26,167 bases of DNA from the NCBI GenBank assembly GCA_016202845.1, contig JACQNW010000094.1:1-26167 (forward strand), in the 5' to 3' direction. The notes under the pieces were generated by a model. It did no database searches and was not told where the DNA came from. It saw only the letters and a program-made list of their open reading frames with translations. The translations under genes and the position numbers were made by a program. The stretch's first letter is position 1; each line of letters begins with the position of its first letter. Below, piece by piece: positions 5,452-26,167 of the stretch. This DNA comes from Candidatus Aenigmatarchaeota archaeon (GTDB lineage Archaea > Aenigmatarchaeota > Aenigmatarchaeia > GW2011-AR5).

Positions 5452-5867
5452 AAAAAGAAATTTATATTAAGATGAAATATCTGAAAGAATACGTTGATAA
5501 TCTCAGAGACATGTCATCGTGCACGCTGCAGCAACTGAAGCAAGACAAAAAACTTAGGGGTGCTGTTGAGCGTTATCTTCAACTTTCCATAGAGATAGCG
5601 CTTGAAGTAGGGGAAATGATTATAGCGCACGAGGGCTTGAGAAAACCGAAGAAACACCAGGAGGTTATAGAAATTTTAGGCGAAGGCGGCATTCTGCCAA
5701 AGGCTTTTGCAAAGAAGTTTGCGCCTGCTGGAGGCTTCAGAAACATCCTTGTTCATATGTACGAAGGCATAGAAGTTGTTGAAGTTTACAAAAACCTGAA
5801 GGAAATAAGCGACTTTGATACATTTGCAAAACACATAGCGCTATACCTCGAAAATAAGGAAGAGTAA
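5448..5867 (+). CDS. HEPN (DUF86-like) RNase toxin of an MNT-HEPN pair
   Basis: GAVERYLQLSIE, and FRNILVHMY carrying the R-x4-H motif. Confidence 0.88.
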   Translation: MKKEIYIKMKYLKEYVDNLRDMSSCTLQQLKQDKKLRGAVERYLQLSIEIALEVGEMIIAHEGLRKPKKHQEVIEILGEGGILPKAFAKKFAPAGGFRNILVHMYEGIEVVEVYKNLKEISDFDTFAKHIALYLENKEE

Positions 5868-23275: not shown

Positions 23276-23505
23276 GCTGAGGTGGCAGAGCTTGGTCAAA
23301 GAGCCCCTTTCTCTTCTGCAGAAAGCAGCGCTTTCTGAGATCTCAGGCGAAGCCTGCAGATGAAAGAGAAGGGGCATGACTTAACGCGCAGGATTGCTAA
23401 AGCCCTTTGTGCATGTAAACGCACAAATCGCTTGCGGAAATAAGTTTCACTAAGCAAATATCCTGTTCCCGCAAGGGAGCGAGAGTTCAAATCTCTCCCT
23501 CAGCG
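23276..23505 (+). tRNA. tRNA-Ser(GCT) with two introns (21/22: 23300..23383; 37/38: 23400..23459)
   Basis: The exons give an 86-nt cloverleaf: GCTGAGG/CCTCAGC acceptor, CAGGA/TCCTG anticodon stem, long variable arm, GAGAG-TTCAAAT-CTCTC T arm and G73. BHB central helices are GGTC/GACT and TTGC/GCAA. Confidence 0.9.
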
Positions 23506-23509
23506 CTAT

Positions 23510-23742
23510 GGGTCGGTGGTCTAGTACCAATCCCTTTCTTAAAAGAAAGGTCTTGGTGAACTCCAAAGAAAAGGAGTTTTAGCATATTAAAAATATGCCA
23601 GAAAATGGCTATGAGTTTCAGTAACTAGCAAACGTTGCCCTTACAAACCGATGTCCTTACGACATCTAGCTAAATGAGGCGAAGGCCGGCGGTTCGAACG
23701 AGTGAAGCAAAAGCTTCTCTTCCGAAATTCCGCCCCGACCCA
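23510..23742 (+). tRNA. tRNA-Val(TAC) with four introns (~16/17: 23526..23604; 23/24: 23614..23631; 37/38: 23646..23676; 59/60: 23699..23728)
   Basis: Five exons (16+9+14+22+14 = 75 nt) form a complete cloverleaf with a GGGTCGG/CCGACCC acceptor. Introns 2 and 4 have clean BHBs; introns 1 and 3 have relaxed BHBs. Confidence 0.88.
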
Positions 23743-24165: not shown

Positions 24166-25242
24166 ATGACTCATGATAGAAGGGAATTTTTAAACACATT
24201 TGCGTCATTAGGCTTTGGAACAGCTTTGATAGGAGCAGAGTTATTGTTTCCAGACGAAGCTTACGCTTATAGAATGACGGATTCTGTCAGTCCGAAGAGA
24301 AGAAAAAGGTCAAACAGAAAAGATACGAAATTCATTGTTTTACATACAACAGAAGCAAATGGAAGTAGCTCCCTTAACAACCTTACACGAGACGGAAAGG
24401 CAAGCTATATGATTGATACAAACGGCAAAGTTTACAAGATTATGAATCCAGATCAGATTTCTATAGGTTGCGGAAGAAGCATGTGGGATGGCCGCAGAAA
24501 TTTAGATAATTGGGCTATTAACATAGAAGTGGTGGGAAGACATAATACACGGCCAACGGCAAGTCAGTATTCTAGCTTGAGAGATCTGGTGCAAGACTTG
24601 CAAAAAACGTACGATATATCTGACAGGAATGTTATGCCTCACTCTCAGGTTGCTTACGGCCGTCCAAATAAATGGCACAGAAGGTCGCATAGAGGAAGAA
24701 AAAGATGCGGCATGCTTTTTGCAACAGATTCAGTAAGAGAAAGACTTGGATTATCTTCAAAACAAAGGGATGATCCTGATGTAGAAGAAGGAAGGTTAAT
24801 GGTTGCTGATCCTTATTTGCGCCAGGTGATATACGGAAGAGCAGTGCCTGAAAGAGAACCTGATGCTGTGAAAGAAGAAGTGGATGAAGATAAACATATT
24901 TTACGAATAGTTGAAAGAGGCCAAACTGTCTGGAGATATGCGGGAGATGAATTTGATGCAGAAACAACCATTTACATGCTCCCGGATGGAAGAGTAAGAA
25001 CCGGAGAAGAATTGCAAAAAGCAGGTTATGACTTTAGTCGTGTGCCGCCAGGTGTCCAAATGGCTGTTGGATATGTTTATGGTGGTCATGTCCACCCTGG
25101 TAGATCAGCATACGAGATAGCAGGCAGAGATTGGAATAATCCTTCCACACTTTACAGGCTGCCGGATAGGAGAATAATTACTGGCGACGATTTGGACTCT
25201 AGAGCTATACCAGATGGAACTCTTGTTCTGTTTAGAAAATAA
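24166..25242 (+). CDS. Tat-exported N-acetylmuramoyl-L-alanine amidase (Amidase_2) with two C-terminal repeats
   Basis: RREFL twin-arginine signal. IVLHTTE, YMIDTNG, INIEVVG, VMPHSQV and RKRC give the Zn ligands His/His/Cys and the catalytic Glu. Confidence 0.82.
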   Translation: MTHDRREFLNTFASLGFGTALIGAELLFPDEAYAYRMTDSVSPKRRKRSNRKDTKFIVLHTTEANGSSSLNNLTRDGKASYMIDTNGKVYKIMNPDQISIGCGRSMWDGRRNLDNWAINIEVVGRHNTRPTASQYSSLRDLVQDLQKTYDISDRNVMPHSQVAYGRPNKWHRRSHRGRKRCGMLFATDSVRERLGLSSKQRDDPDVEEGRLMVADPYLRQVIYGRAVPEREPDAVKEEVDEDKHILRIVERGQTVWRYAGDEFDAETTIYMLPDGRVRTGEELQKAGYDFSRVPPGVQMAVGYVYGGHVHPGRSAYEIAGRDWNNPSTLYRLPDRRIITGDDLDSRAIPDGTLVLFRK

Positions 25243-25275: not shown

Positions 25276-25722
25276 ATGCCTGCTAAAAAAAGAAGCCAGA
25301 GAAAAGCAAGGATAAATCAGCATTCTGCAGCAATGCCCTGGGACAGTTTGATGATACAGCTTATAGTAATACTGCTTATTCTGCTAATGCTAGCATTCGG
25401 TGCAGCATATTATGCGCCAATTCTGGCAGGCGGAGCTTATTTTGGTGACTATGAGGGACGATTAAGTGATCCTAACTATGACCAGCTTACAGAGGACAAC
25501 ACTGCAGGACAGGCATATATTAGGGATGCTGAAGGGCAACTTGTTGGAGGCACGGCAGGCGCTTTTCCTTTGGTAAGTGGTGAAGATATAGTAGGCTCGC
25601 ATGATGATTATCAGAACCAAATAGAATGCAATGATGGCATGGATAACGACAATGACGGCCTTTCAGACCTCGAAGATCAGGAATGCAAAAACTCATGGGA
25701 CACCTCTGAAAGCACTTTTTAA
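25276..25722 (+). CDS. Membrane-anchored hypothetical protein with a C-terminal Asp-rich Ca-binding-type motif
   Basis: TM helix LIVILLILLMLAFGAAYY, and ECNDGMDNDNDGLSDLEDQEC. Confidence 0.65.
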   Translation: MPAKKRSQRKARINQHSAAMPWDSLMIQLIVILLILLMLAFGAAYYAPILAGGAYFGDYEGRLSDPNYDQLTEDNTAGQAYIRDAEGQLVGGTAGAFPLVSGEDIVGSHDDYQNQIECNDGMDNDNDGLSDLEDQECKNSWDTSESTF

Positions 25723-25732
25723 CAAAATTCTA

Positions 25733-25740
25733 TTTATAAA
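25733..25740 (+). promoter_or_regulatory. TATA box for tRNA-Glu
   Basis: TTTATAAA preceded by an A-rich BRE-like tract. Predicts a start site near 25762-25766. Confidence 0.55.
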
Positions 25741-25781
25741 TCTTAAGCATAACATTATTCAGCTCTGTGGTCTAGAATAAT

Positions 25782-25972
25782 GCTCCAAACAAGTTATCAA
25801 TAATTTGTTGGCAAAGTTCGTCTAGCCCGGTCAGTGAACGGCGATCAAACTTGTTTTTATCGTCTCAACTGTTAGGATTTCGGCCTTTCGATAACCAGAT
25901 TGAAAGATCTGAGAGCTCTTTGCTCGTTGAAGAAGCAAGCCGACGGCACGGGTTCAAATCCCGTACGGAGCA
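25782..25972 (+). tRNA. tRNA-Glu(TTC) with three introns (5/6: 25787..25815; 20b/21: 25834..25873; 37/38: 25891..25937)
   Basis: Exons of 5+18+17+35 = 75 nt, with a perfect GCTCCGT/ACGGAGC acceptor after splicing. BHB central helices are TGCT/GGCA, CGGT/ACTG and CTTT/GAAG, each flanked by 3-nt bulges. Confidence 0.92.
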
Positions 25973-25973
25973 T

Positions 25974-26017
25974 TTAACCCCACCAAAACAAGTAACTTTA
26001 AATATTAGTGGGGTTAA
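25974..26017. promoter_or_regulatory. Perfect 10-bp inverted repeat TTAACCCCAC...GTGGGGTTAA enclosing a TATA box
   Basis: Arms at 25974..25983 and 26008..26017 flank TTTAAATA (25997..26004), 8 bp before the ATG at 26026. Confidence 0.55.
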
Positions 26018-26025
26018 CTATATGT

Positions 26026-26167
26026 ATGGTGTATCTGACAACTAAGAAAATCAAAGGAAAAGACTACTTGTACATTGTAAAGTCCGTTAAAATGCCTAAT
26101 GGCAATACTGAAAAACTGTCAAAAATGCTCGCAGGCAATGAAAAGAAGCTTTCTGTTAAAAAACTTG
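26026..26167 (+). CDS. 5' part of a gene running off the window
   Basis: MVYLTTKKIKGKDYLYIVKSVKMPNG... is open to the window edge. This N-terminal pattern is recalled from archaeal Fic-family proteins and IS1634-type transposases; the two cannot be distinguished here. Confidence 0.55.
   Translation, partial: MVYLTTKKIKGKDYLYIVKSVKMPNGNTEKLSKMLAGNEKKLSVKKL

Follow-up and report, generated by a model that had tools for sequence, protein, structure and literature searches.

A tRNA-Glu gene of a DPANN archaeon with an acceptor-stem intron, a splicing motif built partly from the leader, and a conserved upstream look-alike of the tRNA 5' end

How might an intron be spliced out of the acceptor stem of a tRNA if the bulge-helix-bulge (BHB) motif that marks it for the splicing endonuclease EndA is built in part from the 5' leader, which RNase P would remove? 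The question is raised by a tRNA-Glu(UUC) gene that lies close to the end of a 26,167-nucleotide (nt) stretch of DNA from Candidatus Aenigmatarchaeota archaeon (contig JACQNW010000094.1 of assembly GCA_016202845.1). This whole stretch is called the window below; it is contig C63 of genome G000, and other G numbers denote related genomes. An earlier note, made from the sequence alone, had described three introns in the gene, one of them at tRNA position 5/6, and had argued that splicing must come before RNase P cleavage. Most of that description stands, and a short look-alike of the tRNA 5' end, present in the leaders of all five genes in which the 5/6 intron was found, may be what sets the order.

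Joined end to end, the four exons (Table 1) give a 75-nt tRNA-Glu(ttc) with a canonical cloverleaf and all four stems perfect (ARAGORN on the spliced sequence), and a spliced aligner returns exactly the same four exons. A genome of the same genus, G001, carries a tRNA-Glu(UUC) gene whose exons, including the initial GCTCCGT, are identical to this spliced product; that gene has introns at 20b/21 and 37/38 only and none at 5/6. The spliced ARAGORN call and the identity to G001 bear out the gene, its three introns, and all of their coordinates as first described, and at the level of sequence they confirm the locus as a functional tRNA-Glu(UUC) gene in four pieces. All four exons lie within 191 nt behind a single TATA box, which sets the locus apart from split, trans-spliced genes. 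The unspliced window yields zero tRNA hits from ARAGORN or Rfam, and exon 4 is the conserved stretch that BLAST recovers in relatives. No second tRNA-Glu(UUC) gene was found in the G000 assembly by ARAGORN with introns allowed or by a tRNA census. Among the candidates rejected, a "Glu" call by ARAGORN on contig C80 is a mis-parsed tRNA-Lys(UUU) with a 127-nt intron, a "Gly" call at C63:23276 is part of a Ser gene, and the "Glu" solutions of the BHB-stripping census on C97 are junk; contig C89 of G000 begins inside a tRNA-Glu(CUC) gene, a different isoacceptor.

Intron 1 lies inside tRNA positions 1-7, and its motif (BHB-1) places leader base -1 in the central helix and bases -2 and -3 in the outer helix. 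The layout scanned for was an outer helix, a 4-nt central strand, two bulge bases, the cut, one bulge base, and an inner helix, mirrored on the 3' side. BHB-1 has the strict 3-4-3 geometry: the central helix pairs at 4/4 positions (T25781-A25813, G25782-C25812, C25783-G25811, and T25784-G25810), the outer helix comprises 2 bp (A25780-T25817 and A25779-T25818), the bulges read CC/A and AA/G with the cut at the slash, and the inner helix is 9 bp long. Every pair that had been proposed from leader bases -1 to -3 is thus present. Shape alone proves little, because about 10 BHB-shaped motifs of this quality occur in 52 kb, both strands of the window included; the weight of BHB-1 rests on its falling exactly at the junctions that give back a perfect tRNA, and on the identity of the spliced exons to those of G001. 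An intron at this position is unusual even within G000, because nearly all other tRNA genes there keep a contiguous 5' acceptor strand: most of the 34 T-arm anchors resolve to genes with one to four introns, in a census (BHB stripping followed by ARAGORN) that is noisy and served only to judge that contiguity in other genes. The rarity attributed earlier to acceptor-stem introns holds as well, with the qualification that they are already known at position 3/4 in Thermoproteales (PMC4090602).

A pattern search through 70 genomes of the order and then 371 genomes of the class found the 5/6 intron in tRNA-Glu genes of G008, G017, G042, and G048, which belong to genera g8 and g17 of the same family; the signature occurred nowhere else in either set. 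These four further genes are all CUC isoacceptors, and ARAGORN calls all five spliced products tRNA-Glu. The introns of the relatives measure 15, 20, 32, and 47 nt and contain unrelated hairpins, and all end in GGCR followed by AW. With hairpins so variable, pairs were tabulated by script over the five genes rather than by a covariance model. At -2:7, G000 has A-U where the other four genes have C-G; the pair between -1 and the final base of GGCR reads U-A in G000 but C-G in both G017 and G008; at -3:8 the pair is A-U, with G-U instead in G017. Position -4:9 is unpaired in 5/5 genes, which limits the outer helix to exactly 2 bp throughout. The covariation of leader and intron bases that the earlier note proposed to look for is therefore found in homologous genes, as compensatory changes in two pairs, -2:7 and that of -1 with the intron. 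Two such changes in a six-pair motif support the view that the leader-built BHB is under selection, in what is a small sample of homologous genes. Within each of the genera g1, g8, and g17, some members have the 5/6 intron and others lack it, so its gain or loss is recent.

Farther upstream, the leader carries a look-alike of the tRNA 5' end. Its first seven bases, a pseudo-acceptor or "decoy" strand at 25762-25768, pair 7/7 (one G-U) with the acceptor 3' strand at 25965-25971, and the whole look-alike (25762-25775) is at edit distance 3 from the true 5' 15-mer, a closeness equalled by 1/2000 shuffles. All five genes with the 5/6 intron have a decoy 7-mer 14-20 nt upstream of +1. Against the 3' acceptor strand of its own gene it pairs 7/7 in four cases and 6/7 in G008, where the 7-mer ends in TA with a mismatch at position 7; in 4/5 genes positions 6-7 track the 3' strand, with GT opposite AC in G000 and TG opposite CG in G017, G042, and G048. 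The leaders of G000 and G017 are visibly homologous past the 7-mer. In the -10 to -25 zone of 17 tRNA-Glu genes without a 5/6 intron, a 7/7 match is found in none. A single weak 6/7 match among these 17 (GCTTCTA, 19 nt upstream of tRNA-Glu(CUC) at L020 in G009) may be a relic of intron loss.

The position of the decoy relative to the promoter is also regular. In G000 the TATA box starts 29 nt before the first G of the decoy and 49 nt upstream of +1. Measured from the TATA start, the decoy lies 28-34 nt away in the five genes with the 5/6 intron, and mature +1 lies 32-37 nt away in eight ordinary tRNA-Glu genes. Because this spacing matches the ordinary +1 distance, the decoy is placed at the predicted start of the transcript, and we infer that transcription begins at or just before it. 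Local alignment of the upstream regions of G000 and G001 lines up their promoter cores. Between decoy and gene, pairing of the leader spacer with the 5' side of the D arm would extend the outer helix of BHB-1 across a 2x2 internal loop; it is found in G000 only and is not kept in the other four genes.

Folding predictions suggest how the two leader elements might act together. In the five unspliced precursors the decoy is predicted to pair with the 3' strand with probability (P) about 1 (0.87-1.0 in that of G000), and real bases 1-5 are unpaired with the 3' strand. With the decoy deleted in silico, bases 1-5 pair with 68-72 at P 0.62-1.0, and the BHB central helix drops from 0-0.45 to about 0. 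Taken in isolation, the duplex made by the decoy falls short of the real stem in stability by 1.1-5.0 kcal/mol in 5/5 genes. The earlier premise, that intron 1 keeps the acceptor stem from forming, fails, since without the decoy the 1-5:68-72 stem is predicted to form readily and to destroy the BHB. Because the stem would form in this way, the order of processing may be not simply a geometric necessity but something that the decoy enforces.

The model that we favor, at a confidence somewhat above even and on the strength of predicted structures, combines a leader-built BHB with a decoy that holds the acceptor 3' strand, so that splicing comes before RNase P. In a transcript beginning at or just before it, the decoy would pair with the 3' strand (66-72), giving the primary transcript a tRNA-like top half and keeping that strand off G1-C5. 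Freed in this way, G1-U3 and -1 would pair with the intron GGCA, and -2 and -3 with U7 and U8, so that a 3-4-3 BHB would be offered to EndA. After ligation of exon 1 to exon 2 by RtcB, the real strand, contiguous and all Watson-Crick, would displace the weaker, G-U-containing decoy; the 20-nt leader would turn single-stranded, and RNase P would cut at -1/+1. Removal of intron 1 would then precede 5' maturation, with the decoy as the device enforcing that order. Splicing of intron 1 before RNase P cleavage is plausible as modeled: cleavage at -1/+1 would strip the outer helix from the 3' splice-site bulge, and the organism has RNase P proteins, which makes the splicing-first order a reasonable one. 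A broader proposal, to which we give slightly less than an even chance, is that the decoy is a selected cis-acting RNA chaperone and timer, which frees the acceptor-stem intron for splicing and hides -1/+1 from RNase P, and that a weaker decoy, later displaced, may be a general route by which BHB introns enter the acceptor stem in several archaeal lineages.

A number of results weigh against this model. BHB-1 is never the dominant predicted conformer (P 0-0.45), and two-dimensional (2D) whole-molecule folds of leader plus mature tRNA still favor the decoy in G000 (0.91) and G017 (0.85), so these folds do not demonstrate the strand switch on thermodynamic grounds, although 2D folding is a poor guide to tRNAs. 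Only 2 bp make up the outer helix of BHB-1, and in G042 and G048 the -1 pair is mismatched (A/G). Being homologous, the five genes represent few independent events. All differences between decoy and real strand are transitions, about half of which are expected to keep pairing by chance; tested against a transitions-only null, the substitution pattern of the decoy does not reach significance, and it is only suggestive. The family's EndA may tolerate relaxed motifs (PMC5829648), which would weaken the case for an obligatory order. A search for EndA (PF01974) came up empty in G000 and in G001, each 77% complete, and RNase P RNA was not detected in the G000 assembly. Finally, contigs from public groundwater metagenome DNA runs leave 25684-25798, the leader and the start of intron 1, uncovered.

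The rival explanations divide over what the upstream copy is and over how strictly the order is imposed. The gene, its three BHB introns, and the leader-built BHB-1 might all be real while the look-alike is a neutral relic of a 5'-end duplication (through integrase-mediated insertion/excision or tandem duplication) with no folding role, the order being set only by the first-binding enzyme. Short duplications of tRNA 5' ends do recur in this family without any BHB (11 nt in the CUC gene of G001, 12 nt in G049, and 9 nt in tRNA-Asp of G000), tyrosine-recombinase genes lie directly downstream of tRNA-Glu(CUC) in G000 and G017, and in G000 and G017 the look-alike runs past the 7-mer into D-arm-like sequence, as expected of a duplication. 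A published model ties stranded 5' tRNA fragments to intron gain via mobile elements (PMC3293823), and the nonsignificant substitution test agrees with neutrality. Yet the 7-mer has been kept in three genera while spacer, promoter-proximal sequence, and intron hairpin diverged beyond alignment; it always sits at the predicted transcript start; in 4/5 genes every decoy difference keeps pairing, with the decoy weaker than the real stem in 5/5; and its deletion in silico abolishes the BHB helix. We therefore regard a relic without any role as somewhat unlikely, even though the decoy probably arose from a short 5'-end duplication of the kind recurrent in this family. It is unlikely, too, that the order is not obligatory, with a relaxed EndA cutting intron 1 from leaderless RNA via the 9-bp inner helix and the three remaining central pairs (an HBh'-like half motif), or with RNase P and EndA acting in either order. 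Alpha4-type EndAs of DPANN archaea, which have an extra loop, are linked to heavy tRNA disruption and relaxed motifs (PMC5829648), the outer helix consists of two weak pairs with the -1 pair mismatched in two genes, and intron 3 of the same gene already has a relaxed BHB; but RNase P cleavage would leave the 3' splice-site bulge with no flanking outer helix at all, and pairs -2:7 and -3:8 are kept in 5/5 genes through compensatory change, which implies selection.

Doubts about the gene itself carry far less probability. The tRNA lies about 200 nt from the contig end, its conserved 3' exon is a known assembly break point, and public contigs give no independent coverage of leader or intron 1, all of which would suit a decaying pseudogene or an assembly chimera in which intron 1 is junk in a dead gene. 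Such a reading is nevertheless highly improbable: the cloverleaf is perfect with its four stems intact, the exons are identical to those of the congener G001, the gene is the sole UUC isoacceptor in the assembly, the same architecture recurs in four other independently assembled genomes, and leader -2 is co-adapted to its own U7. The earlier note had also raised the look-alike as an alternative 5' end. On a fuller version of that reading, the mature tRNA would start there (GCUCUGU...) and everything to exon 2 would be one long intron. Its GCTCTGT does pair 7/7 with the 3' strand and is used in minimum free energy (MFE) folds, and it stands at a normal promoter distance; but no parse gives a BHB to any downstream junction, and the resulting tRNAs have neither a proper 8-9 linker nor a proper D arm, so the look-alike cannot be an exon. 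The uninterrupted gene of G001 reads GCTCCGT, and hand inspection of G017 leads to the same verdict. A start at the look-alike is thus scarcely credible, and the 7-mer appears instead as a conserved leader element in 5/5 genes.

The favored model, splicing of a leader-built BHB with the help of the decoy, calls on EndA, RtcB, and RNase P. The G000 assembly (0.95 Mb, 40% GC, 77% complete, 137 contigs) contains the RtcB ligase (PF01139 at G000:C53:531-1775, 538 bits) and the RNase P proteins Pop5 and Rpp29. RNase P RNA is found in 17/25 relatives, mostly below the gathering score. EndA is found in 23/25 family genomes, as a single open reading frame (ORF) with N-terminal and catalytic domains, for instance the 213-aa ORF at L021:494-1132; the gene adjoining it in relatives matches the very last bases of G000 contig C96, so EndA very likely falls in an assembly gap of G000. 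As to the tRNA set, ARAGORN with introns makes 16 calls on G000, several of them mis-parsed, and the Rfam tRNA model finds six tRNAs; nearly all tRNA genes are interrupted, and a single intron-less one was seen (Cys, C136:11532-11602). MAGs labelled Candidatus Nanoarchaeia or Woesearchaeota are the closest named relatives of one G000 protein, and the public runs containing the locus are groundwater metagenomes, which suggests a DPANN archaeon of Nanoarchaeia type living in groundwater; a protein Atlas query on taxonomy yielded no more than a glutaminase-ankyrin protein.

The features of the locus are collected in Table 1. Introns at 20b/21, the place of intron 2, are common among relatives. 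In intron 3 the 5-bp anticodon stem serves as outer helix, with a 2-nt offset in the inner helix; the intron boundary is ambiguous by one A (37/38 or 38/39), and BHB geometry favors joining 25890 to 25938.

Table 1. Features of the tRNA-Glu(UUC) locus in the window, with the decoy 7-mers of the related genes
Feature	Position	Strand	Description	Basis
TATA-like box TTTATAAA	25733-25740	+	Probable promoter of the tRNA-Glu transcript	Read from sequence; alignable core in G001
Pseudo-acceptor ("decoy") strand, G000	25762-25768	+	GCTCTGT; at the predicted start of the primary transcript; resemblance to the tRNA 5' end extends to 25775	Pairing, homologues, shuffles
Leader spacer	25769-25778	+	CUAGA 25772-25776 can pair with UCUAG 25821-25825 (5' side of the D arm)	MFE fold
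Leader -3, -2, -1 (AAT)	25779-25781	+	Two outer-helix pairs and first central-helix pair of BHB-1	BHB scan, covariation
Exon 1	25782-25786	+	tRNA positions 1-5, GCTCC	Spliced alignment, ARAGORN on spliced product, identity to uninterrupted G001 gene
Intron 1	25787-25815	+	29 nt, position 5/6: bulge A, 9-bp hairpin 25788-25809 with loop TCAA, GGCA 25810-25813, AA	Strict BHB scan
Exon 2	25816-25833	+	tRNA positions 6-20b, starts at G25816	ARAGORN, spliced alignment, G001 comparison
Intron 2	25834-25873	+	40 nt, 20b/21, strict BHB: central CGGT/ACTG 4/4, outer 2 bp, inner 3 bp continuing past a bulge	BHB scan
Exon 3	25874-25890	+	tRNA positions 21-37, anticodon TTC 25887-25889	ARAGORN, spliced alignment
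Intron 3	25891-25937	+	47 nt, canonical 37/38, relaxed BHB: central CTTT/GAAG 4/4, three-way junction inside	BHB scan, folding
Exon 4	25938-25972	+	tRNA positions 38-73: T arm, acceptor 3' strand ACGGAGC 25965-25971, discriminator A25972	ARAGORN, spliced alignment
Decoy 7-mer, G017			GCTCCTG	
Decoy 7-mer, G042			GCTCTTG	
Decoy 7-mer, G048			GCTCTTG	
Decoy 7-mer, G008			GCTCCTA	

Elsewhere in the window, Ser and Val tRNA genes at 23276-23742 are also multi-intron, and between the tRNA genes, at 24166-25242, lies an ORF with an N-acetylmuramoyl-L-alanine amidase domain (Amidase_2, PF01510, 63 bits). In an archaeon that is expected to have no murein, such an ORF fits the lifestyle of a DPANN episymbiont or predator, or acquired DNA. 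A Pfam search of the ORFs flanking tRNA-Glu, at 25276-25722 and 26008-26166, gave no match, and the contig ends 195 nt after the tRNA, inside an unassigned ORF.

Copies of tRNA 5' ends elsewhere in the family differ in their surroundings. Ahead of the tRNA-Glu(CUC) gene of G001 (L056:1501-1570, contig C71) come an exact 11-nt repeat of its 5' end, placed at the usual 33 nt from TATA, and then a 39-nt insert with a GGGAG stretch complementary to the copy; the gene itself has an apparent very long intron inside the T loop. Upstream of tRNA-Glu(UUC) in G049 (L052:1501-1577, contig C41) stands an exact 12-nt copy, and the 45-nt insert brings its own TATA at the correct distance, giving two stacked promoters. 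On the minus strand of contig C80 of G000, the first 9 nt of tRNA-Asp(GUC) (GCCTCGATG) are repeated exactly 55 nt ahead of the real start; the two copies lie at ~5514-5522 and ~5459-5467 (plus-strand coordinates) and are separated by a 46-nt insert with two hairpins. A long leader is implied here by the nearest clear TATA, which stands far upstream. The 9-nt tRNA-Asp and 11-nt G001 CUC repeats were searched for a BHB in all registers, and no convincing motif emerged.

The 3' sides of some tRNA-Glu genes show possible signs of mobile elements. Tyrosine-recombinase genes (Phage_integrase, PF00589) lie directly downstream of tRNA-Glu(CUC) at L057:175-1422 (contig C89 of G000) and at L030:1764-2897 (G017), and because this is so in two genera, tRNA-Glu genes look like sites of mobile-element integration. 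In G042 (L029), the final ~17 nt of the tRNA (AATCCCGTCGGGAGCAC) recur ~140-150 nt downstream of the 3' end of tRNA-Glu(CUC), as a direct repeat of the type that integration into the 3' portion of a tRNA gene leaves behind. Directly 3' of the tRNA-Glu genes in L011, L013, and L029, which come from different genera, a short conserved hairpin resembles an inverted T arm (GGATTTGAACC...GGGTTCA); its candidate roles are those of terminator, attachment site, and processing signal.

Parts of this arrangement have precedents. Thermoproteales have non-canonical and multiple BHB introns, including one at acceptor-stem position 3/4 (PMC4090602, PMC4033280); a 2025 paper on the structure of EndA also mentions acceptor-stem positions (PMC12397907), and tRNAscan-SE 2.0 adds 60 nt of flank to catch introns near tRNA ends (PMC8450103). 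Like those of Thermoproteales, the introns described here are protein-spliced BHB introns at non-canonical positions, up to three per gene, with positions in the acceptor 5' strand whose motif reaches into the 5' flank; the present case differs in belonging to DPANN rather than Crenarchaeota, in its position (5/6, not 3/4), and in the conserved pseudo-acceptor strand of the leader. DPANN lineages are known for heavy tRNA gene disruption and an alpha4-type EndA with an extra loop (PMC5829648). The present family resembles them in small genomes where standard tools miss the full tRNA set, in common multi-intron genes, and in an EndA of one ORF with N-terminal and catalytic domains, whereas that work catalogues intron classes and enzyme types, with no leader-built acceptor-stem introns or leader decoys.

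Other precedents concern sequence outside the mature tRNA, or the order of processing. In the split tRNAs of Nanoarchaeum equitans and Caldivirga (PMC4033280, PMC4090602), as here, sequence outside the mature tRNA supplies one side of the BHB; there, two transcripts are joined in trans by long complementary flanks, whereas here a single transcript contributes three leader bases to the BHB, and removal of the leader is proposed to fall to RNase P, not EndA. A precedent for an enforced order comes from Cyanidioschyzon merolae and Thermofilum pendens, whose permuted tRNAs need BHB processing before RNase P and tRNase Z can act (PMC3978253, PMC3728597, PMC3218864), although there the order results from permutation and a circular intermediate, while here it would come from two competing pairings in a linear precursor. 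At the tRNA-Thr locus of Caldiarchaeum, a stranded 5' tRNA fragment accompanies a new intron and mobile-element integration is suspected (PMC3293823). The likeness lies in a 5'-end copy upstream of a gene with an extra intron, and in the integrase genes that flank tRNA-Glu genes here; in contrast, the Caldiarchaeum fragment is 1.8 kb or >500 kb away and not co-transcribed, whereas the decoys of the 5/6-intron genes are 14-20 nt upstream, inside the predicted transcript, and conserved across genera.

In the literature searched (with Sugahara et al. 2008 covered via later summaries), no paper describes a leader copy of the acceptor strand accompanying an acceptor-stem intron. Acceptor-stem introns, at 3/4, and flank-dependent BHBs were already known; what is new is the conserved leader decoy together with a BHB intron at acceptor-stem position 5/6 in a DPANN family. 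Steps of tRNA processing are usually described as largely independent; the anatomy of this gene predicts a strict order, with splicing before 5' trimming, that would be set by an RNA element of the leader. The gene also illustrates why standard tRNA finders miss essential genes in DPANN genomes, ARAGORN and Rfam both being blind to it. Finally, it would connect the way a rare intron position came about with short duplications of the 5' ends of tRNA genes targeted by integrating elements, and may in this way bear on how tRNA introns are gained in archaea.

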